From the NCBI GenBank assembly GCA_016765265.1, contig JAESQG010000566.1, positions 1 through 34,528 on the forward strand: a DNA stretch of 34,528 bases, given 5' to 3'. The DNA comes from Pseudomonadales bacterium (GTDB taxonomy: Bacteria; Pseudomonadota; Gammaproteobacteria; Pseudomonadales; DC-out160). The notes under the pieces are model-generated. The model searched no databases. It was not told where the DNA came from and was given only the letters and a program-made list of their open reading frames with translations. This document shows positions 1 through 34,528 of this stretch, piece after piece. Within the stretch, counting starts at the first letter, position 1. Each line of letters opens with the position of its first letter. A program made the translations under genes and the position numbers.

Positions 1-1
1 A

Positions 2-3094: not shown

Positions 3095-3201
3095 AACTCT
3101 TTCGTGAGATATTTTTCTAGTGATAAAAATATTCACAAACCTTTGACTATCACTTTGACTAAATCTATTCGTATTCATAGCTACTCCAATCTATTCTTAA
3201 A

Positions 3202-4029
3202 TTATAAAACACAAGAAACGGCAGGTCTATACATTTCAAATTCTTCTTCTGTCCAAGAAGAATCTTTCCCTTTTAAGAACGCCATAACTTTATTTTGAGC
3301 CGCTTCACCATAAAAATTTCTAGCAAATCTTGGAATTTTTGAATCTCCATTATTTTTATTATCTCTAAACTTTTTAACTTGATTTGATAAATATTTTAGC
3401 GAAGTCGATAACAAAATCCCCGGACTACCATTAACTCTTTCGCAAGGTTTGGCTTCACCAATTTGCTGAAAACAAAATAGTTTAGTATAAAATTTTAAAT
3501 GTCTTGGGTGCACTTCTACAAGAAAGTCCGTTTGCTTCATATTGTGAAAAGCATGGATGAAAATAAAATGAAACATTCTCAACAAAATAGTCTTTGATGT
3601 TCTATATTCCGGTGCTATTGCTAGACGAGTAATCTCCGCTAATCGACGATTCATTTTTCTTAATGAAAATAATTCCTCATTAAAAATTTGATCACATGGT
3701 AGCCCGTCACCAGCTTCAAAATTTAAAGTTACAGTGCCAACGGCTTTTCCTTCTTTGGTTTCTACCAATAATGTAAAAACGTTTTTACCACCATCAAAAC
3801 TATTTACACAAACTTTATCTTCATTATGAATATATCCTGATTCGTTGTACACTTTGTAACCCAATTCATAGGCCTTTCGTCTAGAATCAATGTCCGTAGC
3901 GACAATAAAATTAAAATCTTCTTCATCATTTAAGTCAACTTTTAGCACAGGTTTTTTAGCAGTAGCGCTAATTATTTTTATGACTTGTGAAACAGCTGAA
4001 ATTCTTCTTTTTTTATTTGAAGCAATCAT
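3202..4029 (-). CDS. FeeM-type long-chain N-acyl amino acid synthase (NAS paralog A)
   Basis: GNAT-like motifs shared with the two other paralogs: [57 protein letters not shown]. The start is set at ATG 4029 because AGGAG lies 7 nt upstream. The ORF-track ATG at 4071 overlaps the predicted -12 promoter element. Confidence 0.7.
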
Positions 4030-4065
4030 TTTATTTCTCCTGTGATAATAAACATATTGAGTATA

Positions 4066-4082
4066 AAGCATTTAGTATGCCG
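4066..4082 (-). promoter_or_regulatory. sigma-54 (-24/-12) promoter candidate for NAS A
   Basis: The minus strand reads CGGCAT-ACTAA-ATGCTT. GG is at 4081/4080 and GC at 4069/4068, exactly 10 nt apart. The element lies about 40 nt upstream of ATG 4029, and a sigma-54 activator gene is divergent 150 bp away. Confidence 0.6.
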
Positions 4083-4223
4083 AATATTCACTATTTCATA
4101 AATACAGTATTTTCAATGGGTTAGAATATTACAGAGAAAAGATGGATAATTATTTTGACTTCAGTCGTTTAATTATTACTAATAATATCTCTATATTTTC
4201 TCTATTGATTATAGGCAATTATA

Positions 4224-6602
4224 ATGGCTTCAAAAAATAAAACGTATCATCCATTGATTGCCGCTTTTATTGAAAAGCTACATTGGTGGGACACCTTAGA
4301 AAAAATAAAAAAAAAGCTAGACACAGATGTATATAATATTTTCAAGCTACATGAAGATCTTCACAAGACACCTCGTGAAAATATAGAGCAATTAGCAGAG
4401 AAATTCAAAAAGGCCATTCCACTCTTTAACAATTTTCTTAAAAAAAAATGTGACCCAGACCTTCAGTTTTTATCGCTACTCTATTGGTTTGAGGACTGCA
4501 TGAAAGTTGGGACATTTATAGATGCAGATTTCGTAAAAAATCATTTAGAAAAAATTCTTAATAAAAATACTCCTGATGAATTGCAAAGTATTTTCTATGG
4601 ACATACTGGAGTTTATTATCGGAAAAAAGGAAATGCCTCTAAAGGAAATGAATATTTATTAAAATGTGTTCAATGCCTGAAACCAGATAATCCAAGATTC
4701 ATTCCCGTTTTAATTAATTATGGAAATATCACTAGCTATTTTGGTACGTATCCAAAAATTAAAAATGACATTGAGCTATATTTAAAAGATACAGACAAAG
4801 ATTTTAAACATTGGGGTGATCTATTACTATTTTTTTATTCTATTGAAATGGGTCATTTAAAACAAGCATGGGATGCCTTAAAAAATGTTCCAGAAAATGC
4901 ACCTGGAGTGCTATTTTATTATCATAAATTCAAAATTCATTCGTTTGCCATCGCTTTAAATAAAATGATTCAAAATTGGAATATCACTGATTTTTCAAAA
5001 GTTGAAAAACAGGAAATTGATGAATTCATTCGCGACAGGTATAATCCAGGGAGTTTCGATCGAGGGTATAATATAAAGATTGAAATATTAGATAATATCT
5101 ATTCAGGTAATAGCGATGAAGTAATTAAATTGACTCAAGAGGATAAATTAAGAAACAGAGATCATTGGGAATCAAGTTGGTTTTATTGCTCTCAAATTAG
5201 AATTGAACTCATGGCGGGCAATATTGAATCAGCCGAAATATTATTAAAAAATCTCATTTCAATTGGATATGAATTTATATGGAACGACTGGTTTATGACA
5301 CGAATTGAGCTAGCCAAAAAAAATATCGATGCTGCAAAATATTATTTTCAGAAATTATTAAAATCAGTACAAAAACATAATGCTGAAGATCGCTTTAACT
5401 TTGAGGTCAAAATAGCCCATGAAATAAAGGCAACCGATTTAATTCTATTATCAGACAATAAGAATTTAAAAATTAAAAAGCCCTCAAAGACCAAAATAAA
5501 TTTAGATATTGACAGAATGCCGGCAATCATTGGAATAAGCAAACAGGTAATTAAATTAAAAGAATCAATATCAAAAGTTGCCCCGCATGACATCAATGTT
5601 TTAATTCTAGGAGAGACAGGTACAGGTAAAGAGGTAGTCGCAAAATCACTGCACAATTTAGGCCCAAGAAAAAAAGAACCATACATTGCAATCAACTGTG
5701 CCGCCATTTCAGAAACATTACTTGAATCTGAATTATTTGGCCATCAGAAAGGTGCTTTTACGGGGGCAACAGAATACCATAAAGGTGTTTTTGAACAAGC
5801 GGGTAAGGGTACCGTTTTTTTGGATGAAATTGGTGAGATCAGCTCCAACATTCAAAGTGCTTTATTAAGAGTTTTAGAAACTAAAGATATTAAGCCGATC
5901 GGATCATCTAAATCTTTAAAAATTAATTGTCGTATCATCGCTGCAACTAATGCCAATCTAGAGTTGAAAGTAAAAAATAACGAATTTCGAATGGATCTTC
6001 TGCATCGCCTTAACAGAGTAGTCGTACATACAAATCCACTAAGAAAAAAAATCGAAGACATCCCCCACTTAAGCCAATATTTCTTAAATCAAAATCCGAA
6101 CTTCACAAAAGAAGCGAATCTAACCTTTGAGGCTATTGAAGCTTTAAAAAAATACCCGTGGCCAGGTAATGCTAGAGAACTTAAAAATGAAATGGAAAAC
6201 CTTCGGATTTTCAATTATGAGACATCCCTTTATGATCTTCAAGATTTAGATCCAAAATTTCATGGCCGAGCGGAATCCACTGAAAAAGCAGAAGCCCTAT
6301 CCCTTTCAAGTCTGCAAAGCTCCGAAAATAAACACGCGAAACCAACGGAGATAATTGATAGAGAACAAATCTTGGCAACTGAAGTTTTGTCAAACAATAA
6401 AATTTTCTTTCGAAGAATCGAAAAAATCAAAAAACTTTTTGATATTCATAACATATTAACACGAGCAGAATTAATAAAAATCATGGGAGTTTCTCACTTG
6501 ACAGTAACAAAAGATTTGAAGCTATTAATTGAACAAGACTATATTAAAAAAGTCATGCCGAGTAAATCTCCACGTTCACATTATTTTGAAAAACTACCTT
6601 AG
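4224..6602 (+). CDS. sigma-54-dependent transcriptional activator (bEBP 1) with a helical-repeat N-terminal domain and a winged-helix C-terminus
   Basis: Walker A GETGTGKE (about 5610-5633), GAFTGA (5751-5768), Walker B VFLDEIGE, and ESELFGH are present. There is no receiver, GAF or PAS signature in the roughly 430-aa N-terminus. The C-terminus LTRAELIKIMGVSHLTVTKDLKLLIEQDYIKKVMPSKSPRSHYF looks like a wHTH rather than a Fis-type HTH. Confidence 0.85.
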   Translation: MASKNKTYHPLIAAFIEKLHWWDTLEKIKKKLDTDVYNIFKLHEDLHKTPRENIEQLAEKFKKAIPLFNNFLKKKCDPDLQFLSLLYWFEDCMKVGTFIDADFVKNHLEKILNKNTPDELQSIFYGHTGVYYRKKGNASKGNEYLLKCVQCLKPDNPRFIPVLINYGNITSYFGTYPKIKNDIELYLKDTDKDFKHWGDLLLFFYSIEMGHLKQAWDALKNVPENAPGVLFYYHKFKIHSFAIALNKMIQNWNITDFSKVEKQEIDEFIRDRYNPGSFDRGYNIKIEILDNIYSGNSDEVIKLTQEDKLRNRDHWESSWFYCSQIRIELMAGNIESAEILLKNLISIGYEFIWNDWFMTRIELAKKNIDAAKYYFQKLLKSVQKHNAEDRFNFEVKIAHEIKATDLILLSDNKNLKIKKPSKTKINLDIDRMPAIIGISKQVIKLKESISKVAPHDINVLILGETGTGKEVVAKSLHNLGPRKKEPYIAINCAAISETLLESELFGHQKGAFTGATEYHKGVFEQAGKGTVFLDEIGEISSNIQSALLRVLETKDIKPIGSSKSLKINCRIIAATNANLELKVKNNEFRMDLLHRLNRVVVHTNPLRKKIEDIPHLSQYFLNQNPNFTKEANLTFEAIEALKKYPWPGNARELKNEMENLRIFNYETSLYDLQDLDPKFHGRAESTEKAEALSLSSLQSSENKHAKPTEIIDREQILATEVLSNNKIFFRRIEKIKKLFDIHNILTRAELIKIMGVSHLTVTKDLKLLIEQDYIKKVMPSKSPRSHYFEKLP

Positions 6603-6756
6603 TCCTCAACATTAACTTTTTTCAAATTAAGTATCTATATGTAAAACCGCTACAACTCATTCTGTTGTAATATTGTTTCCATACAACATATATATAGAAA
6701 CACCAAATTAGAAGACTAAACTTCTTTGAAAAGAATTCAATTTGAGAATATCTACC

Positions 6757-9700
6757 ATGCATATCTTTAATACTAAATTTTTTATAGTAATTTCGGCACA
6801 AATATTTTTACTTTTCATATCTATTCATTCTGAAGATTGGCCAATGTGGAAAGGTACCTCCGGACGCGGTGGAGTAAACAATGAGACATTACCCAGTAAA
6901 ATGAATTTGCTATGGACTCGTCAATTTCCAAAATCAAAACCAGCATGGGCTAATAACAAAAGCCAAGCAAAACTTCAGTTTGATGTATCCTTTCAACCAG
7001 TTGTTATGGGTAAAAGTATATTCGTACCTTCAAATGTTAATGATAGTGTAAGTGCATATGATACCGATAGCGGTAAGCAAAAATGGATTTTTTATTCTGA
7101 TGGCCCTGTAAGATTTGCACCCGTGGCCAATGATAATAAAGTTTATTTTGTATCGGATGACGGTTACTTGTATTGCCTCAATGCAGAATCAGGAAAACTA
7201 ATCTGGAAATATAATGGTGGACCTGAAAATAGGAAAATCCTTGGTCGTGATCGATTAATTTCTATCTGGCCAGCTCGTGGAGCACCAGTGCTAAAAAATA
7301 AAAAAATATTTTTTGCCGCCAGCATTTTCCCCTTTATGGGAACTTTCATTCATTGTGTGGATGCAAATTCAGGCAAAATGATTTGGAGAGATACAGGCAA
7401 CGGACCTAAATATTTTACGCAACCTCATGGTGCTGGATCTTTTGCTGGTCTTTCTCCTCAGGGATACCTTGCTGCAGGTGATAAATATTTAATCGTACCC
7501 GGAGGAAAATCTTTACCGGCTGTATATGACATTGAAACGGGGAAATTCTTATACTATTATTTGAACAGTAAGAAAGGCGGTTACAGTGTTCAAGCAGGTA
7601 AAAACTTTTATTTTACCGGTGGTTATGCCAATCAAATTAACAAAACAGAAAAAGGCTTTTCTATCATCAATGGTATATACGCCACTTACGGAAACACCTT
7701 AATTTCAGACAAGGCCATGTATCTTTTACATAATAGTATAATTACGGCTTACCGATTCAAGCCAGAATTTGAAATGAAGGTATATAAAAAAAATAGAAAA
7801 AAAGCTTATCTTACCATGCCAGTTTTGGGCGAATTCACAATTCCTTCGCCAAAAAGTGCTGTCAGGATCAAAGCCGGGAATCAAATTATTCTATATGAGC
7901 GTTACAAAAAACATCTTTACGCTGTTAAGCTACCAAATGAAGAAACACTATTAAAAGCAAAAGCCGGGGAATCTGTAAAACAAAACTTACCCACTATTTG
8001 GACTATCCCGACAGGAAAAAGCCCATGGTCTGTTATTGCTGCAGATAAAAAAGTTTTTGTGGTTACACACGAAGGACTATTATCTTGTTATGGTGCAAGC
8101 ACACAAGAGGTCCAAAAACATAACATTGCCTTAACTCCATTACCAGACACTTCAAACTCGGTTGCTAAATCATTGTTAGAAGTTTTAAAAGAATTGAAAA
8201 TTAAAGACGGCTATTGTGTTTTAGCAGGCTTAGGAAATGATAAATTAGCTGAAACGCTAATTAACAAAACAAACCTTTCTATAATTGCTGTCGATTCAGA
8301 TAAATCAAAAATAAATTCATTAAGACATTCAACTGATCAAGCTGGCTTTTATGGCAATAGAATGTCAGTACATGAAGGCGATCCCCTTTCATATCCACTC
8401 CCACCCTATTTCGCAAACATAATAATTATAACAAATTTAAGCAAACGTTTTTTATATAGTAAATCTAACTTAAAAACTTTATTTAATTCACTACGTCCTT
8501 ATGGTGGCACAGCTTTCTTTAAAGTATCTCCATCAGATATTGATAAAGTTAAAGCTCTATCTACAAAAGCAGGTCTTATTAATGCTGAAATAAAAGCTTC
8601 AAATGGATGGATGCTCTTAATTCGTAAGGGCGCACTTCCTGATTCTGCAGAATGGTCCCACCAGTATGCCGATTCATCAAATAGTATATTTGGCAAAGAT
8701 AAACTTGTCAAACTACCCCTAGGATTATTATGGTTTGGCGGTCCTCCAAATACAAATGTTCTACCAAGACATGGTCATGGTCCATCCCCTCAAGTGGCAG
8801 GCGGCAGAGTTATTATAGAAGGTCAGAATATGTTAAGGGCTGTTGATGCTTACACAGGCAGGTTACTTTGGGAACTTAAGTTAAAAAATCTAGGATATTA
8901 TTATCGACATACGGGCCATCATCCTGGTGCTAATGAAATTGGAGGAAATTACGTATCATTACAAGACACTATATATGTTGCTTATGGGAAAGATCTTTTA
9001 TTTTTAGAAGCAGCTACAGGCAATTTGTTAAAAAAAATAAATTACAAAGAAAATGATAGCGACAAAGAATCTAAAACATGGGGTCATATTTCTGTTCACA
9101 AAAATTATTTAATTACAACAACCTCACCAATTACATTTAAAATACAAAAAGATAAAACAGCTATAATAAATAAAAATGCAAAGTATTCTTCTGGAAGTGA
9201 ACAAATAATAGTACTTAATCGCAAGACGGGAAAAATACTCTGGAAACGAAAAGCCAAATTCAATTTTAGGCACAATGCCATATGCAGTGGCGATGGTGTC
9301 TTATTTTGCATTGACTCTTTCTCAAAAAGTAAATTTAATTATTTAAGAAACCAAGAAGAGAAAATCGGAAAACTATTAGCACTTGATATCAAAACTGGGA
9401 AAGAAATTTGGTCCAGTAATGAAAATATAACAGGAACCTTTTTAAATTATTCTGATAAACACAAAGTCCTTCTCCAGGCCGGTAGCTCCAACCGAGACAG
9501 GGCCAGAGATGAGACAAAAACAGGCATGATAGTTTATCAAGCTAAAGATGGAAAAGTAGTCTGGCAAAATTTAAAAATAAAATACGGAGGCCCATTAATT
9601 ATCCGACACAAAGAAATCATTACCAATGGTGGTGGTGGCACAGGAATTGATTTACTTTCAGGCAAAGCCACAAGTTTTAAGTGGAAACGAAACTACGGAT

Positions 9701-10446
9701 GCAACACCGCTATTAGTTCAGAACACCTACTGACCTTTCGATCAGGGGCAGCAGGTTTTTATGATTTAACTAATAGAGGCGGAACAGGAAACTTCGGTGG
9801 TTTTAAATCCAGTTGTACATCAAATCTTATTCCAGCTGATGGAATACTAAATGCTCCCGATTATACCAGATCTTGTTCATGTGCTTATCAGCTCACTGTC
9901 TCCTGTGCTTTGGTCCATATGCCTGATGTAGAGTACTGGACATTTAAAGCTGATGCTACTCCTGGAAAATGGGGATTCAATATTGCTGCATTAGGAGATA
10001 GGAAAGTCCCCAATGGTTCTTTGTGGCGAAAATTTGACATTTTAAAAAACAGAAAATATATACGATCAACTTCTGGCAAATTAACACCGTTCAGAGTTCA
10101 TTCAGGCTACGTTAAAGGAGAAAAGTTTAAATGGGTTGCTTCCTCTGGAGTAAAAGGTTTAACTGATTTAAACATCAATGTTAAGGGAGCTACCAAAGGT
10201 ACCGTTAGGCTAATTTTCATGGAACCAGACAAACTCAAAATAGGAGATAGAATCTTTGATATATCATTGCAGGGAAAAGAGTTAATTAAAGGGCTTGATA
10301 TAATCAAAGAATCTGGAGGACAAAATCATGTCCTGATCAAAGAATTTAAAGATATCGAATTAAACAATTCATTAAAAATTATATTTAAAGCATCCACAAA
10401 GAACCCACCTATTCTCAGCGGAATAGAAATTATCAAAACAAATTAG
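6757..10446 (+). CDS. secreted PQQ-like beta-propeller repeat protein with a central Rossmann/methyltransferase-like insert and a C-terminal malectin-like domain
   Basis: The N-terminus is hydrophobic (FFIVISAQIFLLFISIHS). BamB/PQQ-like repeats recur (SGKQKWIF, DGYLYCLNAESGKLIWKY, DANSGKMIW, DAYTGRLLWE, NRKTGKILWK, DIKTGKEIW). The C-terminus IFDISLQGKELIKGLDIIKESGG resembles malectin domains. The ORF track starts at TTG 6742; ATG 6757 is preferred. Confidence 0.6.
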   Translation: MHIFNTKFFIVISAQIFLLFISIHSEDWPMWKGTSGRGGVNNETLPSKMNLLWTRQFPKSKPAWANNKSQAKLQFDVSFQPVVMGKSIFVPSNVNDSVSAYDTDSGKQKWIFYSDGPVRFAPVANDNKVYFVSDDGYLYCLNAESGKLIWKYNGGPENRKILGRDRLISIWPARGAPVLKNKKIFFAASIFPFMGTFIHCVDANSGKMIWRDTGNGPKYFTQPHGAGSFAGLSPQGYLAAGDKYLIVPGGKSLPAVYDIETGKFLYYYLNSKKGGYSVQAGKNFYFTGGYANQINKTEKGFSIINGIYATYGNTLISDKAMYLLHNSIITAYRFKPEFEMKVYKKNRKKAYLTMPVLGEFTIPSPKSAVRIKAGNQIILYERYKKHLYAVKLPNEETLLKAKAGESVKQNLPTIWTIPTGKSPWSVIAADKKVFVVTHEGLLSCYGASTQEVQKHNIALTPLPDTSNSVAKSLLEVLKELKIKDGYCVLAGLGNDKLAETLINKTNLSIIAVDSDKSKINSLRHSTDQAGFYGNRMSVHEGDPLSYPLPPYFANIIIITNLSKRFLYSKSNLKTLFNSLRPYGGTAFFKVSPSDIDKVKALSTKAGLINAEIKASNGWMLLIRKGALPDSAEWSHQYADSSNSIFGKDKLVKLPLGLLWFGGPPNTNVLPRHGHGPSPQVAGGRVIIEGQNMLRAVDAYTGRLLWELKLKNLGYYYRHTGHHPGANEIGGNYVSLQDTIYVAYGKDLLFLEAATGNLLKKINYKENDSDKESKTWGHISVHKNYLITTTSPITFKIQKDKTAIINKNAKYSSGSEQIIVLNRKTGKILWKRKAKFNFRHNAICSGDGVLFCIDSFSKSKFNYLRNQEEKIGKLLALDIKTGKEIWSSNENITGTFLNYSDKHKVLLQAGSSNRDRARDETKTGMIVYQAKDGKVVWQNLKIKYGGPLIIRHKEIITNGGGGTGIDLLSGKATSFKWKRNYGCNTAISSEHLLTFRSGAAGFYDLTNRGGTGNFGGFKSSCTSNLIPADGILNAPDYTRSCSCAYQLTVSCALVHMPDVEYWTFKADATPGKWGFNIAALGDRKVPNGSLWRKFDILKNRKYIRSTSGKLTPFRVHSGYVKGEKFKWVASSGVKGLTDLNINVKGATKGTVRLIFMEPDKLKIGDRIFDISLQGKELIKGLDIIKESGGQNHVLIKEFKDIELNNSLKIIFKASTKNPPILSGIEIIKTN

Positions 10447-10478
10447 GCAACAGTCGTAGGTTGGGCTGCAGACTATTT

Positions 10479-11315: not shown

Positions 11316-11351
11316 TTATAACTTTCTTCAGTAATACAATGAAAAATAAAC

Positions 11352-11367
11352 ACAAAGCATGCTTTGT
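11352..11367. promoter_or_regulatory. perfect 16-bp palindrome in a divergent promoter region
   Basis: ACAAAGCATGCTTTGT is its own reverse complement. It lies between the divergent esterase gene (start 11315) and the metallophosphoesterase gene (start 11445). Confidence 0.3.
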
Positions 11368-11444
11368 CTCTACAAAAATATATTGATAGATGATTCTCTC
11401 AAATATAATATGATTTCCAATAAATAACTTAAAGAAAAACGGCA

Positions 11445-15041: not shown

Positions 15042-15088
15042 TTTATTATTTCCAATTAAAATAATTGATATCACATGCTAGTAGTCAT

Positions 15089-17935: not shown

Positions 17936-17951
17936 TGCAAATCACAAGCCA
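17936..17951 (-). promoter_or_regulatory. sigma-54 (-24/-12) promoter candidate for NAS B
   Basis: The minus strand reads TGGCTT-GTGAT-TTGCA, close to the consensus TGGCAC-N5-TTGCW. GG is at 17950/17949 and GC at 17938/17937, 10 nt apart. The element is about 40 nt upstream of ATG 17896. Confidence 0.7.
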
Positions 17952-21782: not shown

Positions 21783-21785
21783 AAG

Positions 21786-23461: not shown

Positions 23462-23494
23462 GAGTAATTTAATTCCAAGAAAGGTTTAAGTCAA

Positions 23495-23746: not shown

Positions 23747-23802
23747 TTACTAGCAGCCGGCAAGCATTTAACTTACCGGCAACCTTAACTAAATAAATTA
23801 GC

Positions 23803-25497: not shown

Positions 25498-25537
25498 AAA
25501 TAATAGTCAGGATTCCACTATTAATATCCTTATAGTT
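25498..25537 (+). promoter_or_regulatory. candidate ECF-type promoter of the sigma/anti-sigma operon (shared motif, copy 1)
   Basis: AAATAATAGTCAGGAT-N13-TCCTTATAGTT ends 25 nt before ATG 25563. It has the same sequence and spacing as 27797-27835. Confidence 0.5.
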
Positions 25538-26080: not shown

Positions 26081-27631
26081 ATGAATAACCAAACAGAATA
26101 TTTCAACCTACTATTAGAAAAATATATTGCGAATGATCTATCAGATAATGAAAGTCTGAAACTAAAAAAATTGCTTTCAAACAATATGAATTATCAAAAG
26201 AAATTTGCAGAGGCGCTAACTTTCGAAGCAACCATACAAAATGTTATGAATGACAAAAATGCTGCTCTGAAAGAAGCTGAACAAAATGGAAAAATAATTC
26301 CATTTAAAAGCAAAACAAAACATCGAAGTAGAAGATTTCAAAATCAAAAACAAGAATCTAAAACAAATAAAATTCTAATTGCCATAGCAGCAATATTTGC
26401 AATATGTATTACTGGATGGATATACAAAGACACTCTAACTCAATACAACAATATAGCTATGGATGTTAAAATTGATGCCATAGGACAAGTGCAATTCACA
26501 AGAAATAATAAAAACACAAATTTATATTCCTTATCTCAATTAAAACCAGGCGATATTTTAGAAACAAAACAAAGCGAATATATAAAAATTATGACTAAAG
26601 ATGGCTCTAGCATTTTAGTCAATGAAAACACAAAAATTGTTGTGGGTGAAACTCGTTTAAATGTCCTAAAAGGTGATATTTACGCTAATATACAAAAAGG
26701 TGAAATAAATTATTTTAAAAATTATAGTACCGATCAGCAGCACTCATTTTCCATTCAAGGTACTATTTTTGAGATTTCAAATGATACACAAAATAATACT
26801 TCTAGACTTTCAGTTGAAGAGGGGCAAGTTTTATTCGCAAGAAATAAACAACACAAAATTATATCAAGCAGATATTCAATCATATCGAATAGCTTAAATG
26901 GATTTGGAGAAAAAAGAAAACTTCTAAAAAATGAAATTATTGCACCTTGGATAAGCTACTATTCTTATTTAAAAAATTCTGACGTTATTTTTATTGATAA
27001 TTTTGATTCAAAATCAATTAGAAAGGACTGGACCATTACTAAAACCGGTCAGTGTGAAATAACATATCCAAAATTTAAATCTGTTGCAGAGTTAAAGGTT
27101 AAAGGCTTATCAAAAATAATAATATCTTCGCCAATTATTAAGCTAGATGATCAACCAATGCATATACGTTTTAGTGAGGATCAAATATATGGAGAAGGTC
27201 CTTTTGAATATGGCTTTGCTATTTATATGAATGGAGAATTACAATTGGAACAATCTATAAGGGTTAAAAGAAAATCAAACAATAAATTTCACTTCATTGA
27301 AGTTATTATAGTAAATGGTGAAAAACAAAAGGGGAAGGGATCATTAGTAAGCGCCCAACTGCCAATAATTGAGACATCTTTTCATATATCACCTAGGCCA
27401 AAAGACGACACTGTTGATAAAAAAGTAACCATAGATTATAAACAATCAATCAGTATGCCCGAGATTACGAGCATTATCAAGGGTGAAAATATTCAAATTA
27501 AATACTTCCTAAAGGGGCTTTCAAAAGACGCAAAAGCAAATTTTGGTTTAGATGCTTTTATAGTTACAAAAAGTAAAAAGCTAACCAACAAAATTATCGC
27601 TGAGTTTATACCCTATATCAAAATTGAATAA
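26081..27631 (+). CDS. FecR-type transmembrane anti-sigma factor with an additional C-terminal domain of unknown function
   Basis: It starts 5 nt after the sigma gene stop. It has an N-terminal anti-sigma helix region, one TM segment (ILIAIAAIFAICITGWIY), and a FecR-like beta region (GDILETKQSEYIKIMTKDGSSILVNENTKIVV ... FSIQGTIFEISN ... VEEGQVLF). About 230 further residues are unassigned. Confidence 0.7.
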   Translation: MNNQTEYFNLLLEKYIANDLSDNESLKLKKLLSNNMNYQKKFAEALTFEATIQNVMNDKNAALKEAEQNGKIIPFKSKTKHRSRRFQNQKQESKTNKILIAIAAIFAICITGWIYKDTLTQYNNIAMDVKIDAIGQVQFTRNNKNTNLYSLSQLKPGDILETKQSEYIKIMTKDGSSILVNENTKIVVGETRLNVLKGDIYANIQKGEINYFKNYSTDQQHSFSIQGTIFEISNDTQNNTSRLSVEEGQVLFARNKQHKIISSRYSIISNSLNGFGEKRKLLKNEIIAPWISYYSYLKNSDVIFIDNFDSKSIRKDWTITKTGQCEITYPKFKSVAELKVKGLSKIIISSPIIKLDDQPMHIRFSEDQIYGEGPFEYGFAIYMNGELQLEQSIRVKRKSNNKFHFIEVIIVNGEKQKGKGSLVSAQLPIIETSFHISPRPKDDTVDKKVTIDYKQSISMPEITSIIKGENIQIKYFLKGLSKDAKANFGLDAFIVTKSKKLTNKIIAEFIPYIKIE

Positions 27632-27796: not shown

Positions 27797-27835
27797 AAAT
27801 AATGGTCAGGATCTACCCTCAACTTTCCTTTAGTT
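27797..27835 (+). promoter_or_regulatory. candidate ECF-type promoter of the NAS-oxidase fusion gene (shared motif, copy 2)
   Basis: AAATAATGGTCAGGAT-N13-TCCTTTAGTT ends 36 nt before ATG 27872. Confidence 0.5.
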
Positions 27836-27871: not shown

Positions 27872-30301
27872 ATGACATCATTCGAAAAACAATCAGTCAC
27901 TAGCCATGTTGCTTCAGGAAATCAATTAAATAGACGATCGTCAAAAAGACCATCATCCGTCAGCTCAATCATAAAAAAGTTTGAGCTCGATGAATACTCA
28001 ACTAATATAATTGAAAAAGATAAATTCAATTTCTCAATTACTTCCAATAAAGAAGATCGAAAAAAATGCTATGAACTTGTCACAGATGTATACATGAAAA
28101 AAGGTTTTTTAATCGATAACGATTATCACTCTGTTATTTCTAATTATGACAACCAAATAACAACCGTTATCGTTTCCGCAAAGGACTCTTTAAATAATGT
28201 CATTGCCACCGTAACAATCGTACTAAATATTTCTGATTTACCTTGCTTCCAAACTTTTCCTAACGAAACAGAAAAATTAAAAGACAAAACTCTTGCTGAA
28301 GTTACTAGACTTGTCATTCATGATGATTACCGACAAAGTAAAGATCTTTTAATAGGTCTATTTAATTATGTATTTATCTATGCTTATAAAGTTTTCAAAT
28401 GTGATCACACATTAATAGAAGTTAACCCAAGACATGTACAATATTATAAACGATTTCTTTATTTCAGACCACTGTCTGACAAACAAGAATGTGCTAGAGT
28501 ACAAAATGCACCTGCCATTCTTTCTATCATTGATTGGGATACATTGAATACAATAGAAAATTTTCCACACAAAATTAAAAACTTAAAAAGATCCTTCTAT
28601 AGTGGATTACATTTACAAAAAACAAAATTAAATTCCATAGAAGAAGATATCAAAGAAGCAACTAAATTTAAAAAATATCAAACATCTAAAATCCAGAAAG
28701 ACATCTTTCAAAAATTCTATGACATCGTCGGCTTCGAAAATGTTAAAATAGATTTAGATACACGTTTTGAATATGGAAGAAGTACACTCGAATCAGGAAC
28801 TCTTCCTAAATTAATCATCCAGCCTGAAAATCATGATCAAGTAAAAGAAATCATGTCTCTTGCGAACGAAATTGTATGGGAAGTCCATCCCATCAGTACA
28901 GGTAAAAACTGGGGTTATAGTGATGCTTGTGCATTAAACAATGGAGTCGTTTTATTAGACTTAAAAAGAATGAATAAGATCTTTTCCTTCGATGCAGAAT
29001 TAGGAACAGTAGTCGTAGAGCCAGGGGTAACACAAGGTCAAGTGGCTAAATTTCTTGAAGACAATAATCATCCATTCATTATGGATGCTACCGGAGCTGG
29101 ACCAGACACAAGCTTGATTGGCAATACAGCCGAAAGAGGTTTTGGCCATAGTCCAAATGGTGACCGCTTTGCTAATAGTTGTGGCTATGAAATCGTTTTG
29201 GCAAACGGAGAAGTTCTTCAGACAGGTTTTGGTAGTTTCGAAAACTCTAAAGTGACTGACGTTTATAAATGGGGTGTTGGTCCTAGTCTTGATGGTTTAT
29301 TCACACAATCAAACTTAGGTGTCATCACTAAAATGACTTTTTGGTTAATGCCAAAACCAGAATGTTTCAAAGTGGCTTACTTCATGTTAAAGAACAATTC
29401 AGATATCGCTGAATTCATTGACCGCATTAGACCTTTGAGAATGGATGGCACATTAAAATCCGTCATTCATATTGGTAATGATCTTAGAATACTTTCTATG
29501 TCACAATCATATCCATGGGAAGAAATGAAAGGCGCTACTCCATTGGCTCCGAAATTAAGAGAGAAAATGATTGAAAGAAATGGTCTTGGTGCTTGGTCTG
29601 GAACAGCTGGGCTTTATGGATCAAAAGAACAAGTTAAAGCTGATATTAAAAAATTAAAAAAAGCTTTGAAATCTTTCAAAGGCATGAAAAAAATGATTAT
29701 TCTCGGCGAGAAACAAGTTAACTTGATCTCAGCAATTGGCCAAAAAATAAAAGACTATTCTTTTGGAAAAAAACTACACACTATTTCACATAAAATAAAA
29801 ATGGCTTTTGATCTATTAAAAGGTCAAAGTCCTGAAACATGCGTACAAGGTGGATTATGGCGCGTAAAAGATCAAAAGAAAAAAGACTCTATCAATTCAA
29901 GCAATCCATTAGATTATAAAGCTGGCTTTTATTGGATCTCTCCAATATTGCCAATGAAAGGTTCACACGTAACAGCCTTACAAAATTTAGTAGAGCCAAT
30001 TTTTAACTCATATGGATTTGATCTTCAACAAACATTAAGCATGACAAACGAAAGATCATTAAGTTCAGTGATGACAATTTCATTTGATAAGAAAAATAAA
30101 CAAGAAGCCTCAAATGCACGAAAATGTCATGATCAAGTTGTTGATGCCTTAACTGAAGCAGGATATATTATTTATAGAGCTGGTAACCACACAATGAAAA
30201 AACTTGATTGCCGAAAAGATGCATATCAGTCAGTTCTATCATCAATTAAGAATGCCTTAGATCCAAATAACATTCTAAGCCCAGGTAAATATAATATGTA
30301 A
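27872..30301 (+). CDS. fusion protein: FeeM-type N-acyl amino acid synthase (NAS paralog C, about aa 50-235) plus VAO/PCMH-type FAD-linked oxidase (about aa 290-809)
   Basis: NAS motifs: FNFSITSNKEDRKKCYELVTDVY, AEVTRLVIHDDYR, EVNPRHVQYYKRFLYF. Oxidase motifs: HPISTGKNWGYSDA, VVVEPGVTQGQV, LIGNTAERGFGHSPNGDRF, EIVLANGEVLQTGFG. These run collinear with the vanillyl-alcohol oxidase FAD-binding region as I recall it (ISIGRNSGYGG ... GNAVERGVGYTPYGDH ... VVLANGELLRTGMG). Confidence 0.75.
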   Translation: MTSFEKQSVTSHVASGNQLNRRSSKRPSSVSSIIKKFELDEYSTNIIEKDKFNFSITSNKEDRKKCYELVTDVYMKKGFLIDNDYHSVISNYDNQITTVIVSAKDSLNNVIATVTIVLNISDLPCFQTFPNETEKLKDKTLAEVTRLVIHDDYRQSKDLLIGLFNYVFIYAYKVFKCDHTLIEVNPRHVQYYKRFLYFRPLSDKQECARVQNAPAILSIIDWDTLNTIENFPHKIKNLKRSFYSGLHLQKTKLNSIEEDIKEATKFKKYQTSKIQKDIFQKFYDIVGFENVKIDLDTRFEYGRSTLESGTLPKLIIQPENHDQVKEIMSLANEIVWEVHPISTGKNWGYSDACALNNGVVLLDLKRMNKIFSFDAELGTVVVEPGVTQGQVAKFLEDNNHPFIMDATGAGPDTSLIGNTAERGFGHSPNGDRFANSCGYEIVLANGEVLQTGFGSFENSKVTDVYKWGVGPSLDGLFTQSNLGVITKMTFWLMPKPECFKVAYFMLKNNSDIAEFIDRIRPLRMDGTLKSVIHIGNDLRILSMSQSYPWEEMKGATPLAPKLREKMIERNGLGAWSGTAGLYGSKEQVKADIKKLKKALKSFKGMKKMIILGEKQVNLISAIGQKIKDYSFGKKLHTISHKIKMAFDLLKGQSPETCVQGGLWRVKDQKKKDSINSSNPLDYKAGFYWISPILPMKGSHVTALQNLVEPIFNSYGFDLQQTLSMTNERSLSSVMTISFDKKNKQEASNARKCHDQVVDALTEAGYIIYRAGNHTMKKLDCRKDAYQSVLSSIKNALDPNNILSPGKYNM

Positions 30302-30427: not shown

Positions 30428-31960
30428 ATGAGCAAAAAACCTTTAAATTTTATTATTATTACATCAGACCAACAACGTTGGGATTGTTTAGGGAAATTAA
30501 ATTCCTTAGTTCCAACACCTAATTTAGATAAATTAGCTGATGATGGAATACTTTTTACCGATGCCTACTGCCCTAGCCCAACCTGTACTCCATCAAGAGC
30601 CTCACTATTAACAAGTCAATTACCATCAAGACATGGTGCCTACAATATAGGTACATCCTTGGATATTGATACAAAAGGGATCGCGCATCAGTTCAATGAA
30701 AATGGCTATGCAACTTCATTAATTGGCAAAGCTCATTTCCAACAGTGTCATGGATGCCCAGATAGTTTAGAATCTGAACCTAAAGTTCATAACTGGGATT
30801 TTTTTCAAAACTGGAATGGCCCTTATTATGGATTCGAACATGTTGAATTATGTATTGGCCATACAAACGAAAAAAAATCCGGCGGCATGCACTTTGGTCT
30901 TTGGTTAAAAGAGCAAGGCATTGATTTAGAAAAATATTTTAATTACGGACAATTCGATGCCTTCTTTGGTCATGGTAAGTGGGATCTACCAGAAGAATTT
31001 CATAATTCAAAATGGATCGCGGACAAATCCATTGAATTCATTGATAAACAAATTGAAGCCGACAAATCATTTTTACTGTGGTCTAGTTTTCAAGACCCTC
31101 ATGCTCCATGTTGGGTTTCTTCACCATGGGATACAATAGTCAATCCTGATGATATCCCATTGCCAAAACAATTTCCAGATGATGCCAAAAACAAACCACC
31201 CTTCTATGCGCCGTTAGATAGCGAAGAAAAAAATGGGTATCCTGCTTACGACAAGGATGAAACAACCAAATGGAATCATAATTTTGGAATTCCCCATAGC
31301 TGGTTTAATGTTTTTAAAGAGCCTGAAGAAATAAAAAAAATCACCGCGCTTTACTATGGGATGATTGCCCTCATGGATCATCATATTGGTCGAATGATAG
31401 ATGCTTTAAAAGAAAAAGGGATCTACGACAATACCGTCATTGTTTTCACTTCAGACCATGGAGATTATTTAGGACATCATAATTTATGGAATAAAGGCCT
31501 TCACGCTTACGATGATATTCAAAAGGTACCTTTCATTGCCAAGGTACCTGGCAATAAAACCAAAGGCAAACAAAGCACTACTCTTCAAAATTTAATGGAT
31601 ATCGCACCTACCTTCAGTTCACTAGCCAACTTTGACATAAATCGAAACTATGAAGGTGTTGATCAATCAACTGTTTGGTCAGGCGAAAATAAAAAAGTTC
31701 AAGATTGGACCATGTGTGAGTTTCGTCCCAATGAAATGGATTATCTCCAACGAACATTTATCACTGACGAATACAAGCTTGTAGTTTATATGAAAAAAGA
31801 ATATGGTGAGTTATATGACCGCATCGAAGATCCTGATCAACAAAACAATCTTTGGGATCAATCTGATTTTCAAATATTAAAAGGAAAGCTACTTTTGAGA
31901 ATGGCATCAGCCGATATGGAACGGGAGCGACATTATCAGCCCAGGACATCCGGTGCATAA
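30428..31960 (+). CDS. sulfatase (formylglycine type); no signal peptide
   Basis: LNFIIITSDQQRWD, the CTPSRASLLTS motif and TSDHGD are present. Confidence 0.9.
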   Translation: MSKKPLNFIIITSDQQRWDCLGKLNSLVPTPNLDKLADDGILFTDAYCPSPTCTPSRASLLTSQLPSRHGAYNIGTSLDIDTKGIAHQFNENGYATSLIGKAHFQQCHGCPDSLESEPKVHNWDFFQNWNGPYYGFEHVELCIGHTNEKKSGGMHFGLWLKEQGIDLEKYFNYGQFDAFFGHGKWDLPEEFHNSKWIADKSIEFIDKQIEADKSFLLWSSFQDPHAPCWVSSPWDTIVNPDDIPLPKQFPDDAKNKPPFYAPLDSEEKNGYPAYDKDETTKWNHNFGIPHSWFNVFKEPEEIKKITALYYGMIALMDHHIGRMIDALKEKGIYDNTVIVFTSDHGDYLGHHNLWNKGLHAYDDIQKVPFIAKVPGNKTKGKQSTTLQNLMDIAPTFSSLANFDINRNYEGVDQSTVWSGENKKVQDWTMCEFRPNEMDYLQRTFITDEYKLVVYMKKEYGELYDRIEDPDQQNNLWDQSDFQILKGKLLLRMASADMERERHYQPRTSGA

Positions 31961-32011
31961 AGATTAAAAGCTTTGGAGCGTATCAAGACAATGAAGCGCT
32001 ATAGGGTATTA

Positions 32012-32803
32012 TTAATTTTTAAAAAAATCTGTAAAATGTTTCTTATAGGCTTCACTGGCCTTATTAAAGACCTCATCAGAAGTTTTATTACTAAAAGCCA
32101 TATAAGGCTCACTTTCAAATGCAAGTAATACCATTTCTAATTTGCCTGAAGGAACATTTGTATTTTTGAGAATTGCACTCAAGGAATCTTCATGCTTCAC
32201 TATTAAATCGATTTGCCCATCAAGGAGATGCTTAACTGTTGCTTCATGAGGACTAATCAACGTTATATTTTTAAATTGATTGTTCTGTAAAAATATATGT
32301 TTATTACTCAATTGACCAGCACCAACTCGTAACTCTTTAAGATCATCAATTGTTTTTGCCGAAATATCTTTTCTTGATTTTAATTTATAGAAAAATACTC
32401 TATCAGATTTTGCTACAGGGCCAACCCATCTAAAAAGATTTTCTCTTTCTTTCGTTCGAACAATTGCAAAAATTAAAACATTTGGCTCACTCAAAGCTAA
32501 TTTATAAGATCTTGCCCATGGATATAAATTCATGCTATAGGACATCGAACTTTGATCAAGAACTGTCCTCACAATATTTGTTGCAGAACCTTTAATCACA
32601 TCATTTTCAATAAAGCTAAATGGCTTCCAGTCTTCTGTTACGACCTTGATGGTTTCATTAGTTTCTGGTGAAATCGATACATCTGAATCATCTGATTCAT
32701 AATCAATATCATAGGGTAGAGTTTTCTTTTCAAAACTTATATAAGAAAAGCCAACTACTCCAAGGATTAATAAAATTAAAAGGACGTTTGTCTTCATAGG
32801 CAA
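32012..32803 (-). CDS. periplasmic solute-binding protein, family 3 (orphan; no permease or ATPase gene in the window)
   Basis: It has an N-terminal signal/anchor (VLLILLILGVVGF) and SBP_bac_3-like features (WKPFSF, YPWARSYKLA, LIFAIVRTKERE). Confidence 0.65.
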   Translation of the reverse strand: MPMKTNVLLILLILGVVGFSYISFEKKTLPYDIDYESDDSDVSISPETNETIKVVTEDWKPFSFIENDVIKGSATNIVRTVLDQSSMSYSMNLYPWARSYKLALSEPNVLIFAIVRTKERENLFRWVGPVAKSDRVFFYKLKSRKDISAKTIDDLKELRVGAGQLSNKHIFLQNNQFKNITLISPHEATVKHLLDGQIDLIVKHEDSLSAILKNTNVPSGKLEMVLLAFESEPYMAFSNKTSDEVFNKASEAYKKHFTDFFKN

Positions 32804-32973
32804 TAATGTTACAAGTTTAAGAACTAGTATTTATGTAATAAGATTCGTACTCTATTATATCCTACAATTCTTACCATAATATGACCGATAATTAGATTAT
32901 TGACAACTTCACAGGGCAATACTTAGGATAGTAGATTATTTTTATTTGCATAATATGACTTCCTATTGAATTC

Positions 32974-34476
32974 CTAGGCATCAACTTTAAAAGTAGCCGA
33001 TTTTACCTCTTCTCCAGTAAAATAATTCAATATTGATGGTGCATAACCATCTTTTGGTCTTGGTCGAAACACACCACCCTTAAACCCCAATTTAGCTTTA
33101 TTATTCCATGGTCGTTTTTCCCAACAGGGACCCCGCATCGGATCACGCTGTTTATAAAAATAATCAATTAATTCATCAAGCATAGCATCTCGTATATCAG
33201 AAAAATTTTCATCAAGAATAAGGTTTATTAATTCAGCTGAATCATTTTTTAAATCGTACAACTCATCCACATCATCAAGCAAATTAATTGATAACTTGTA
33301 ATCACCTTTAACAATACACCTAATAGGATGAAACCCATTCAATCCATCATGATCAACTTCAAAACGATTAAATTCAATAAATACCGATCGCTTTTCTTCT
33401 TCTTTTAATGTGGAGACAAGGCTCTTACCAGCAAAAATATCCGGGATATCAAGGTCGGCTAGCTCCAACATAGTCGGCAAAATATCAACATGACTAACAA
33501 GAGTATTGTTCTCCTGACAAAAGGAACCCCTATCAGGAAATTTAATCAGCAAAGGAATATGAGTAATCTCTTCATACATGACTGGACCTTTACCTTTTAA
33601 TCCATGCGCAGACATCATATCACCATGGTCTGAAGTGAAAATTATAATCGTATTATCTTTTGCATGTTGATCAATCGCCTTTAAAACCCTACCAATTTCA
33701 TTGTCAACAAAACTATTGCAACCAAAATACATTGGTTTCTTAACCTTTTTATTTCGTTCCGATACACCGGCATGTACGGCCCAATCTTTTTGTAATTGCG
33801 GTTTGCCTTCTAAAGAATCAAAGGCACCATCACCAATGTCATACTCAAACTCTTCAAATGATTCCACATATTCTGACGGACATGTAAATGGACCATGAGG
33901 CTCATCATAAGAGACCACTAATAAAAAAGGGTCTTCTTGACCATCTTGTTTACTTAGGAAATCAATCGCTCGATTACTAACTTGATGACCCCATGTCCAT
34001 TCGGATTTTATCGAATTCTCTTTTAAATCTGTCAAAGAATTTAATTGTTCTCGCCATAGTTTTTTTTCATTTTGACTTAACAAATTCATATGGTTACGAC
34101 CATCATACCAGTATTCATTATCCCACCCATCCGGACAAATTCCGCTTCCATAATAATCATGAGCGTCCAAGTGCCATTTACCTGTATAGGCTGTTTTATA
34201 GCCACCGTCACGAAAACGCTGACCCATCGTTTTTATATTATCCCCAATTGCTAAATGATTCGCCCAAGCGCCATTAAAATTACCATAATTTCCCGTAAAC
34301 AAAGCGCTTCGGGCTGGTGTACATAATGGACAAGTCGTATATGCCCTATTAAATTTAATGCCATCGGAAGCTAATTTATCCAAATTAGGAGTCATTAACC
34401 CTTTTTTTGCATAGGACTCCACCATGTTAACCCCTTGGGTATCAGTCATAATAAATACAAAATTAGGCTTCTTCAT
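32974..34476 (-). CDS. sulfatase (formylglycine type); no signal peptide
   Basis: PNFVFIMTDTQG, the CTPARSALFTG motif and TSDHGD are present. An AGGA sequence lies upstream of the ATG. Confidence 0.9.
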   Translation of the reverse strand: MKKPNFVFIMTDTQGVNMVESYAKKGLMTPNLDKLASDGIKFNRAYTTCPLCTPARSALFTGNYGNFNGAWANHLAIGDNIKTMGQRFRDGGYKTAYTGKWHLDAHDYYGSGICPDGWDNEYWYDGRNHMNLLSQNEKKLWREQLNSLTDLKENSIKSEWTWGHQVSNRAIDFLSKQDGQEDPFLLVVSYDEPHGPFTCPSEYVESFEEFEYDIGDGAFDSLEGKPQLQKDWAVHAGVSERNKKVKKPMYFGCNSFVDNEIGRVLKAIDQHAKDNTIIIFTSDHGDMMSAHGLKGKGPVMYEEITHIPLLIKFPDRGSFCQENNTLVSHVDILPTMLELADLDIPDIFAGKSLVSTLKEEEKRSVFIEFNRFEVDHDGLNGFHPIRCIVKGDYKLSINLLDDVDELYDLKNDSAELINLILDENFSDIRDAMLDELIDYFYKQRDPMRGPCWEKRPWNNKAKLGFKGGVFRPRPKDGYAPSILNYFTGEEVKSATFKVDA

Positions 34477-34528
34477 TTTTATTTTTCCTACAATAATTGA
34501 ATGACAAATTAAACTTCACATAGAAGAT

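Follow-up and report, generated by a model that had tools for sequence, protein, structure and literature searches.

Why does one stretch of bacterial DNA carry three genes for N-acyl amino acid synthases (NAS), each beside a regulator associated with an alternative sigma factor, in the midst of sulfatase and other glycan-related genes? We addressed this question for a 34,528-nucleotide (nt) contig (JAESQG010000566.1 of GenBank assembly GCA_016765265.1, deposited as Pseudomonadales bacterium; this whole stretch is the window). An original prediction, made from the sequence alone, had proposed that lipo-amino-acid signals may coordinate expression of a sulfated-glycan degradation programme, by analogy with quorum control of public goods. 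We consider another reading probable, in which the window holds three NAS modules, each expressed from an alternative-sigma promoter under its adjacent regulator and making specialised lipid products, with the sulfatases as mere neighbours. Profile searches of the window's open reading frames (ORFs) against Pfam and NCBIfam, from which gene identities were taken (Table 1), recovered most of the genes listed by the prediction: the FeeM-type NAS domain (PF21926) in three ORFs spanning 27.1 kb (within 27 kb, as predicted), two sigma-54-dependent bacterial enhancer-binding proteins (bEBPs) and one extracytoplasmic function (ECF) sigma/anti-sigma pair, a set of genes for a ketoacyl synthase (KAS), an acyl carrier protein (ACP) and a flavoprotein, four sulfatases, a malectin protein and an esterase. 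The predicted solute-binding protein survives as an SBP_bac_3-like gene that scores just below its family cut-off, and the predicted Asp-box propeller was lost altogether, as the two orphan ORFs had neither a Pfam hit at E ≤ 1 nor a strict Asp-box motif.

All three NAS domains matched PF21926 strongly (E = 7 × 10−42, 2 × 10−40 and 8 × 10−35, or 143, 138 and 120 bits, for NAS1, NAS2 and NAS3, respectively; curated cut-off, 27 bits), were mutually 28–30% identical and had invariant motifs in common. In a five-sequence alignment, the Glu of an AEITRL motif was invariant; in the FeeM structure (PDB 2G0B, the only solved homologue), it pairs with the Glu of LAEVV. This aligned glutamate is reportedly catalytic in FeeM (Van Wagoner and Clardy, 2006). 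Word-index matches to NAS1 numbered only 3 in 5.8 billion proteins, and because this NAS lineage is so rare, its clustering here is far from chance. Genome and metagenome scans, from which we compared 160 loci of NAS relatives (80 genome and 80 metagenome), returned no relative above ~41% identity, so modules 1 and 2 could not be compared as wholes with a true orthologous locus.

The three forms described by the original prediction (soluble, membrane-tethered and oxidase-fused) hold for NAS2, which is fused to a transmembrane (TM) domain, and for NAS3, which is fused to an oxidase, but NAS1 is not simply soluble. Its gene encodes 275 amino acids (aa) and opens with the ATG at 4029, which a GGAG ribosome-binding site precedes; a 289-aa form (the longest ORF, 3202–4071) returned nothing in an exact-protein look-up and was set aside. 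In a public 469,956-bp metagenomic scaffold (ENA ERZ23499281, TULL18-1_SAMN07571245_METAG-scaffold_2), to which the window is 99.98% identical from position 3095 onward, NAS1 is followed after a 23-nt gap by the gene for a 111-aa YgaP-like TM protein. This partner is 28% identical (E = 3 × 10−10) to the N-terminal domain of NAS2, a two-helix membrane domain with a weak YgaP-like_TM match, and the same TM gene adjoins NAS in five related loci (L004, L006, L007, L008 and L085). NAS1, via its partner, and NAS2, via its fused domain, thus both appear to be membrane-associated.

NAS1 and NAS2 each face a divergently transcribed bEBP gene. Both bEBPs carry a Sigma54_activat domain (E = 1 × 10−64 and 6 × 10−63) with Walker A (GTGKE) and GAFTGA motifs, and from about residue 315 to the C terminus the two proteins share 38% identity. 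As modelled by AlphaFold (mean predicted local distance difference test score 80), bEBP2 comprises an all-alpha repeat solenoid (residues 1–390), an AAA+ core (410–650), a disordered linker and a winged helix (698–761). The long N-terminal domain of bEBP1 has no Pfam match but can be partly aligned to this modelled helical-repeat domain, and its C-terminal region is homologous to the winged helix. A Fis-type helix-turn-helix (PF02954, HTH_8) was absent from both proteins in Pfam searches, which gave a weak DeoR-like hit instead, and ~20 database proteins with the same full-length architecture, one of them labelled Planctomycetota, likewise lack PF02954. Foldseek with the bEBP2 model returned FleQ and NtrC1 as top matches, and also DmpR; tried with the full model as a clue to the N-terminal domain, it was dominated by the AAA+ core and uninformative about that domain.

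The DNA between these gene pairs carries candidate promoters of the corresponding type. Both strands of 3095–34528 were scanned for GG-N10-GC elements resembling TGGCAC-N5-TTGCW, yielding 12 matches in total (background rate, 1–5 × 10−4 per position-strand), and NAS1 and NAS2 each have one shortly upstream, followed by a good ribosome-binding site. The chance of a match in a given gene's 100 nt upstream is ~0.019, and that of a match at both NAS1 and NAS2 is ~4 × 10−4. A third match considered as a promoter (21687–21672, before the 394-aa lipoprotein-like gene) was rejected because it lies within a terminator-like hairpin.

We then assessed whether this arrangement recurs in the genomic context of six bEBP homologues (L165, L170, L172, L167/L168, L171 and L169). 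In three of these (L165, L170 and L172), the bEBP is divergently paired with a FeeM-type NAS, so that, counting the two in the window, five of eight members of the bEBP family form such pairs. The pairing surfaced only from this bEBP-side search; with tblastn, no bEBP was found directly beside NAS among the 160 NAS-centred loci. Seven spacers between the divergent genes were scanned (the two in the window and five from other loci, L169 being left out), and a TGGC-N7-TTGC element was present in every one, oriented like the divergent gene and 35–53 nt from its start codon in six and 324 nt in L172. The claim that NAS1 and NAS2 each have their own sigma-54 regulator is well borne out by these elements and by the recurrence of the pair. 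Upstream of the NAS2 element lies a candidate enhancer (upstream activating sequence, UAS), and the exact 10-mer ATATAGATCA that forms its repeats was present in all four bEBP2-type spacers (window, L170, L167 and L171), 120–165 nt from the start of the divergent gene; in the L165 spacer, ATAGACGCAA occurs three times instead. As judged from sequence, these spacers are laid out as expected for enhancer-dependent sigma-54 promoters, and the layout is conserved across organisms.

Several further features of these loci were observed. In L172, the stretch between the sigma-54 element and the annotated NAS start (5189–5691) may encode a small hydrophobic (TM) protein, possibly another membrane partner. 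The L165 locus (6605–12478), from the sample that also yielded the window, combines a TM-fused NAS with 36% identity to NAS2 and a bEBP with 44% identity to bEBP2; nitroreductase-like and ThiF genes adjoin them, and genes for GH42, GH123 (two copies), a PL8 lyase and SASA surround the whole. The remaining bEBP homologues face other genes: a methyltransferase-like membrane protein gene in L167/L168 and L171, and a YjbQ gene in L169. In L167 (5583–8927) and L171 (49–3417), the bEBP2 homologues (44% identity) have the same ATATAGATCA repeats and sigma-54 element and face a 285–293-aa membrane protein resembling S-adenosylmethionine (SAM)-dependent methyltransferases, after which comes a 577-aa FAD_oxidored gene. 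We considered whether the 285-aa L167 gene could be a diverged NAS, but it had no BLAST hit to NAS1–NAS3 and, by eye, has a glycine-rich SAM-binding-type motif and a hydrophobic C terminus.

These divergent pairs could also be read as autoinduction circuits, in which the helical-repeat domain of each bEBP would bind the lipid made by its divergent NAS, giving LuxI/LuxR-like feedback through sigma-54 independently of the sulfatases. The conservation of the divergent synthase–regulator pair, with the sigma-54 promoter on the synthase, would fit such circuits, as would the two diverged pairs in one locus (bEBPs 38% and NAS 30% identical), which is how orthogonal signal–receptor pairs would look; no ligand is known for the large sensor domain, and a quorum-sensing role has been speculated for planctomycetal N-acyl tyrosines (PMC7293339). 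However, because the L167 and L171 bEBPs, with the same UAS and promoter, face a methyltransferase-like gene, the family also appears to control non-NAS targets and is not tied to NAS products. Moreover, solenoids resembling tetratricopeptide repeats (TPRs) usually bind proteins rather than lipids. We regard autoinduction as unlikely, and as quite improbable its fuller form, in which the TPR-like/AAA+/winged-helix bEBPs are receptors for the products of their divergent NAS, making two orthogonal pairs with a third, ECF-gated channel. If true, a FeeM-type synthase with a sigma-54 activator would be a previously unrecognised class of cell–cell signalling pair in the Planctomycetes–Verrucomicrobia–Chlamydiae (PVC) group, analogous to LuxI/LuxR.

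For the third module, both regulatory genes were recognisable, the ECF sigma by Sigma70_r2 above its cut-off (Sigma70_r4_2 falls just below, at 24.8 versus 25.7 bits, and the best NCBIfam match, TIGR02989, is below its own cut-off) and the candidate anti-sigma by FecR (26.5 bits) and a hydrophobic segment at about residues 106–125. The two genes are co-oriented, with a 5-nt gap. The upstream regions of the ECF gene and NAS3 have the sequence AAATAATrGTCAGGAT-N14-CCTT in common, and the 12 specified bases of GTCAGGAT-N14-CCTT matched the window exactly twice, both times on the + strand and at these two genes (an exact match occurred in 0 of 200 shuffles). On a metagenomic contig with the same gene order (L093: ECF, 60% identical; FecR-like, 27%; then NAS, with a separate flavin adenine dinucleotide (FAD) oxidase, 61%), the ECF and NAS genes are again preceded by the motif, in its two best matches with one mismatch each (2 matches with at most one mismatch observed versus 0.05 expected; 0 of 200 shuffles reach 2), and the oxidase gene, on the other strand, is preceded by a copy with two mismatches. 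The claim that NAS3 has its own ECF regulator is thereby supported, and the motif suggests an autoregulated ECF regulon comprising the sigma/anti-sigma operon, NAS and oxidase.

Association of NAS with ECF-type sigma factors extends well beyond these two loci. With a purpose-built hidden Markov model (HMM), an ECF-type sigma gene was found within 3 kb of NAS in 17 of 29 PVC-type loci, usually 100–200 nt away, and in none of 135 other, mostly betaproteobacterial loci (1.7 Mb), although an HMM built from PVC sequences may be less sensitive outside the PVC group. In L010, a locus of a Planctomycetota metagenome-assembled genome (MAG), 14 kb hold three NAS genes, the oxidase gene and two genes for ECF-like sigma factors of ~500 aa. 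Pairing of FeeM-type NAS with an alternative-sigma regulator therefore appears to be a trait of the lineage and not a peculiarity of the window.

The synthase of the third module is itself a rare fusion. NAS3 consists of a FeeM-type NAS domain (residues ~50–260) and a flavoenzyme of the vanillyl-alcohol oxidase/p-cresol methylhydroxylase (VAO/PCMH) family (~290–809). Its C-terminal 520 residues matched PchF (1dii/1wve) at E = 2 × 10−80 and vanillyl-alcohol and eugenol oxidases at ~1 × 10−50, and NAS3 has Y, Y and R at the positions aligned with PchF Y95, Y473 and R474. These three are the phenolate-binding residues of VAO/PCMH enzymes, so that the triad is kept. The fusion is called as a single 809-aa gene in the independent scaffold, and among 1.84 billion representative proteins, it recurred only in P0209 (70% identical) and a divergent P0301. 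NAS genes with such an oxidase nearby were found in 23 of the 160 loci (9 of 80 genome and 14 of 80 metagenome; Planctomycetota and Betaproteobacteria), and because NAS and oxidase are thus a conserved neighbour pair, NAS3 is a Rosetta-stone fusion. In other proteins (P0230, P0235, P0284 and P0275), the 4-phenol-oxidase family was seen fused to a seven-helix domain (HisKA_7TM) plus methyltransferase, to methyltransferase alone or to a non-ribosomal peptide synthetase condensation–adenylation–thiolation–thioesterase end. FeeG, from the environmental DNA (eDNA) fee cluster, and CndG, from the chondrochloren pathway, belong to the 4-phenol-oxidising VAO/PCMH subgroup and convert N-acyl-tyrosines to hydroxystyryl enamides by oxidative decarboxylation via a quinone methide (PMC11350588, PMC11959600, PMC8762209). 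By analogy, the substrate of NAS3 would be tyrosine and its product an enamide or dehydro derivative, and an oxidase of this type fused to NAS3 points to N-acyl-tyrosine-derived products, as in Stieleria and eDNA clusters. Upstream of the ECF gene, and parted from module 2 by terminator-like hairpins after the tRNA-Asn gene (21782–21755 and 21693–21670), the KAS–ACP–flavoprotein set (22223–25197) recalls the stieleriacine cluster, with its KAS II and desaturase, and is probably an operon for dedicated acyl-chain supply and desaturation, putatively linked to NAS.

From these domain identities, promoter motifs and conserved gene pairs we infer how the regulators bind, what substrates and products are involved and what role the locus serves. 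In module 1, a sigma-54 promoter activated by the divergent bEBP1 would drive NAS1 and its small YgaP-like membrane protein. In module 2, another, activated by the divergent bEBP2, would drive TM-fused NAS2; the bEBP2 winged helix probably binds the ATATAGATCA repeats ~100 bp upstream, and signals are likely to enter through the large N-terminal helical-repeat domain of bEBP2. In module 3, the FecR-type membrane anti-sigma would hold the ECF sigma until an envelope or extracellular cue arrives, and the freed sigma would transcribe its own operon and NAS3. NAS3 would join an acyl chain from acyl-ACP, perhaps a special one supplied by the upstream KAS–ACP–desaturase-like genes, to tyrosine, and its flavoenzyme would oxidise the 4-hydroxybenzyl side chain via a quinone methide, giving an enamide (by oxidative decarboxylation) or a dehydro or hydroxy derivative. 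The most likely role is that of a secreted or membrane-associated specialised lipid, similar to the stieleriacines.

Several observations weigh against this mechanism. The NAS1 −24/−12 element fits the consensus at only 8 of 11 positions, three of the eight bEBP-family members are not beside NAS, and the ECF motif is unlike textbook ECF promoters. Tyrosine as the NAS3 substrate is deduced solely from the fused oxidase. KAS, ACP and flavoprotein genes lay beside NAS in none of the 160 related loci, and those in the window have neither an ECF nor a sigma-54 motif upstream. Finally, the gap between NAS3 and sulfatase 3 lacks a predicted terminator, so that read-through from NAS3 is possible; of the genes that follow, only sulfatase 3 could be reached in this way.

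The membrane association of NAS1 and NAS2 raises a further possibility, that the synthases make membrane aminolipids and that membrane composition is tuned by the ECF/FecR and sigma-54 regulators acting as envelope-stress circuits. In its favour, NAS2 and the partner of NAS1 are membrane-anchored, aminolipids are established components of bacterial membranes, and envelope cues elicit responses from ECF/FecR pairs and from many sigma-54 regulons. Yet oxidases of the FeeG/CndG type, as on NAS3, are known from specialised-metabolite pathways and not from bulk membrane lipid synthesis, three differently regulated paralogs suit specialised products better than housekeeping lipids, and stieleriacines added as a purified compound alter biofilm formation by other bacteria (PMC7293339). 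We accordingly give envelope remodelling little credence.

Do the sulfatases belong to the same circuitry? Neither a sigma-54 nor an ECF motif was found in the intergenic regions that precede the window's sulfatase, malectin, esterase and phosphoesterase genes. A sulfatase occurs within 10 kb of NAS in just 3 of the 29 PVC-type loci (L006, L018 and L093), with unconserved order and orientation; thus, the comparison of gene neighbourhoods that had been proposed as a check showed NAS recurring with bEBP and ECF sigma genes but rarely with sulfatases. All four sulfatases carry the Cys-type formylglycine motif CxPxR; in each, the catalytic domain starts right at the N terminus of the longest ORF, without a signal peptide, which predicts that they are cytoplasmic or exported by an unrecognised route. 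For this reason, the public-goods analogy of the original prediction fits poorly. Some observations do favour N-acyl amino acids as diffusible, quorum-type signals coordinating an interleaved sulfated-glycan degradation programme: four sulfatases lie within 31 kb whereas the 10 kb flanking the region on each side hold none, the lack of a predicted terminator after NAS3 gives it a physical link (the only one) to sulfatase 3, glycan genes flank related modules (a sulfatase beside the FAD oxidase in L093; GH42, GH123, PL8 and SASA in L165), and the FeeM fold reportedly resembles that of LuxI-type synthases. However, PVC genomes are generally rich in sulfatase and glycan genes, and adjacency is therefore weak evidence; with no shared promoter motif, sulfatases near NAS in so few loci and no signal peptides, we consider such coordination very unlikely. 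In the overall explanation that we favour as probable, the sulfatases, like the other glycan genes, count as ordinary neighbours.

The left end of the window is foreign to the locus. Positions 1–3094 had no match in scaffold ERZ23499281 and have a GC content of 50%, compared with 30–37% from 3095 onward, and the frame of the second IscS loses sense at ~3096. In three other assemblies (ERZ23499281, Logan SRR5988120 and JGI 3300029925), NAS1 is followed instead by the 111-aa YgaP-like membrane protein gene, asd, recJ and an FHA-SpoIIE gene. Because these assemblies differ there and the junction at 3094/3095 breaks two genes, iscS and that of NAS1's membrane partner, the left 3.1 kb is evidently an assembly chimera; the start coordinate of the original prediction, 3095, is exactly this junction. 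Ribosomal RNA was considered as the cause of the high-GC end, but Rfam found only the tRNA-Asn, and the block consists of foreign cysE/iscR/iscS. Positions 3095–34528 would then be a chromosome segment of a low-GC marine PVC-group bacterium, probably of the Planctomycetota. The sample may be crustal fluid from North Pond, as suggested by 'TULL18' in the scaffold name and by protein P0091, which has a COA79 locus tag (a North Pond MAG tag) and whose contigs share run SRR5988120 and JGI metagenome 3300029925 with the scaffold; the accession numbers did not appear in PMC5739024. In the remainder of the gene inventory, the borderline SBP_bac_3 gene lies two genes downstream of NAS3, and a metagenomic FeeM protein (P0088) carries precomputed SBP_bac_3/Lig_chan-Glu_bd hits, which may hint at a connection through amino-acid binding.

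Table 1 Genes and regulatory elements of the window, in order of position.
Feature	Position	Strand	Basis or remark
CysE C terminus, IscR, IscS/NifS-like protein, first ~95 codons of second IscS	1–3094		apparent assembly chimera
Partial YgaP-like (DUF2892) membrane protein gene	3095–3178	-	first 28 codons of 111 aa remain; full gene in L001, L002, L003
NAS1, FeeM family	3202–4029	-	Pfam PF21926
Sigma-54 type −24/−12 element CGGCAT-N5-ATGCT (candidate)	4067–4082	-	37 nt before NAS1 ATG
bEBP1	4224–6602	+	Sigma54_activat
PQQ-propeller/malectin protein	6742–10446	+	Pfam
BD-FAE esterase	10479–11315	-	Pfam
Metallophosphoesterase	11445–12311	+	Pfam/NCBIfam
361-aa orphan	12306–13391	-	no Pfam/NCBIfam match; overlaps end of metallophosphoesterase gene by 6 nt
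Sulfatase 1	13422–15074	-	Pfam, CxPxR
Sulfatase 2	15288–16655	+	Pfam, CxPxR
NAS2, FeeM with fused YgaP-like TM domain	16721–17896	-	Pfam PF21926
Sigma-54 type −24/−12 element TGGCTT-N5-TTGCA (candidate)	17936–17951	-	39 nt before NAS2 ATG
Candidate enhancer (UAS)	18031–18071	.	inverted pair of ATATAGATCA and third near-copy, ~80–120 nt upstream of sigma-54 element
bEBP2	18125–20422	+	Sigma54_activat
394-aa orphan, lipoprotein-like signal	20431–21615	-	no Pfam/NCBIfam match
tRNA-Asn(GTT)	21785–21857	-	Rfam
KAS II-like	22223–23461	+	Pfam/NCBIfam
ACP	23495–23746	+	DSM serine motif
CrtI/amine-oxidase-like flavoprotein	23803–25197	+	Pfam/NCBIfam
Candidate ECF promoter GTCAGGAT-N14-CCTT	25506–25531	+	ends 31 nt before ECF sigma start codon
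ECF sigma	25563–26075	+	Sigma70_r2
FecR-domain protein, single-pass, candidate anti-sigma	26081–27631	+	Pfam FecR
Second exact copy of GTCAGGAT-N14-CCTT	27805–27830	+	ends 41 nt before NAS3 start codon
NAS3, FeeM fused to FAD-linked oxidase	27872–30301	+	PF21926 and FAD_binding_4
Sulfatase 3	30428–31960	+	Pfam, CxPxR
SBP_bac_3-like protein, borderline	32012–32803	-	25.6 bits versus cut-off 26.4
Sulfatase 4	32974–34476	-	Pfam, CxPxR

Stieleriacine-type N-acyl amino acids are among the few characterised planctomycetal natural products, and the Stieleria papers only speculate on signalling. Regulatory parts are now at hand for experiments (a sigma-54 promoter with its UAS, a bEBP family in at least five loci and an ECF motif in two organisms), including tests of the lipids as signals, and our results suggest that silent NAS clusters might be switched on by overexpressing the cognate sigma factor or bEBP. 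By analogy with FeeG, the fusion of FeeM and FeeG types could serve as a single-gene biocatalyst for N-acyl-tyrosine-derived enamides.

How does the locus compare with known systems? A tie between FeeM-like acyltransferases and sigma-54 regulation already exists in the NAS (TIGR03694) associated with PEP-CTERM/exosortase, an exopolysaccharide-linked protein-sorting system, which Craig and colleagues reportedly described in 2011 together with the PrsK/PrsR sigma-54 system. Near-consensus sigma-54 elements were observed upstream of the NAS match in five betaproteobacterial loci (L057, L059, L074, L078 and L082; for example, TGGCATAGATATTGCT), so FeeM-type genes may be under sigma-54 control outside the PVC group as well, possibly via the PEP-CTERM PrsR system. 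That the window's NAS genes themselves belong to this sorting system is, in our view, highly improbable. More distant homologues do come from Betaproteobacteria known for PEP-CTERM, several with these strong −24/−12 elements, a link between NAS and PEP-CTERM is cited for Stieleria (PMC7293339), and NAS1 has a weak TIGR03694 hit; but that hit reaches 32 bits against a cut-off of 111.95, NAS2 and NAS3 have none, no window ORF has PEP in its last 40 residues, and searches of the window and of 10 kb on each side revealed no exosortase domain. Moreover, the bEBPs are not response regulators: they lack the PrsR receiver domain, and their TIGR02915 match covers the AAA+ core only, below cut-off.

Compared with LuxI/LuxR, the window appears similarly arranged, with an acyl-ACP-dependent acyltransferase gene beside a dedicated activator predicted to drive the synthase promoter, and with two paralogous pairs in one locus. 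In contrast, the place of LuxR is taken here by a sigma-54 AAA+ activator that combines a winged helix with a putative helical-repeat sensor, and close bEBP homologues appear to control non-NAS genes.

In its chemistry, module 3 is closest to the fee cluster (FeeM, the ACP FeeL and FeeG), CndG and HyeB (hyellamide), in which a FeeM-family NAS, a 4-phenol-oxidising VAO/PCMH flavoenzyme and a dedicated ACP recur and for which the predicted conversion, N-acyl-tyrosine to hydroxystyryl enamide, is the same. It differs in that both enzymes form one polypeptide, under an ECF sigma/FecR circuit, and for NAS3, dehydrogenation or hydroxylation is predicted to be as possible as decarboxylation.

As a whole, the locus most resembles the stieleriacine clusters of Stieleria maiorica and S. 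neptunia (PMC7293339, PMC12479983), which are likewise Planctomycetota loci with FeeM/NasY-type NAS paralogs (one, three or four), a KAS II adjoining NAS, a fatty-acid desaturase and a transcriptional regulator, and whose products, N-acyl tyrosine derivatives with a modified side chain, have a predicted counterpart here. In S. maiorica, four NAS genes occur with KAS II, a desaturase, a ThiF-like protein, an oxidoreductase, a PEP-CTERM protein and a 'DegU' regulator (PMC7293339), and a trio of NasY, a ThiF/TyzB-like and a nitroreductase/TyzC-like protein has been proposed for N-acyl dehydrotyrosines (PMC12479983). The window lacks ThiF/TyzB-like, nitroreductase/TyzC-like, methyltransferase, PEP-CTERM and efflux pump genes, and its side-chain oxidation enzyme is the fused VAO/PCMH flavoenzyme; L165 unites the bEBP–NAS pair with the ThiF and nitroreductase genes that are absent from the window. 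Sigma-54 bEBP or ECF control is not described in the stieleriacine papers ('sigma' is absent from PMC12479983, and PMC7293339 makes only a general remark on ECF), and no paper in the library searched mentioned both 'N-acyl amino acid synthase' and 'sigma-54'. The density of NAS paralogs with dedicated sigma wiring, singled out as unusual by the original prediction, is thus unusual in part: multi-NAS loci were already known in Planctomycetota, whereas the regulation is the new part. New here are a bEBP family (helical-repeat sensor, AAA+ and winged helix) paired with NAS genes, a predicted ECF regulon covering NAS and a FeeG-type oxidase, a lineage-wide adjacency of NAS and ECF sigma genes, and a rare fusion of FeeM and FeeG types.

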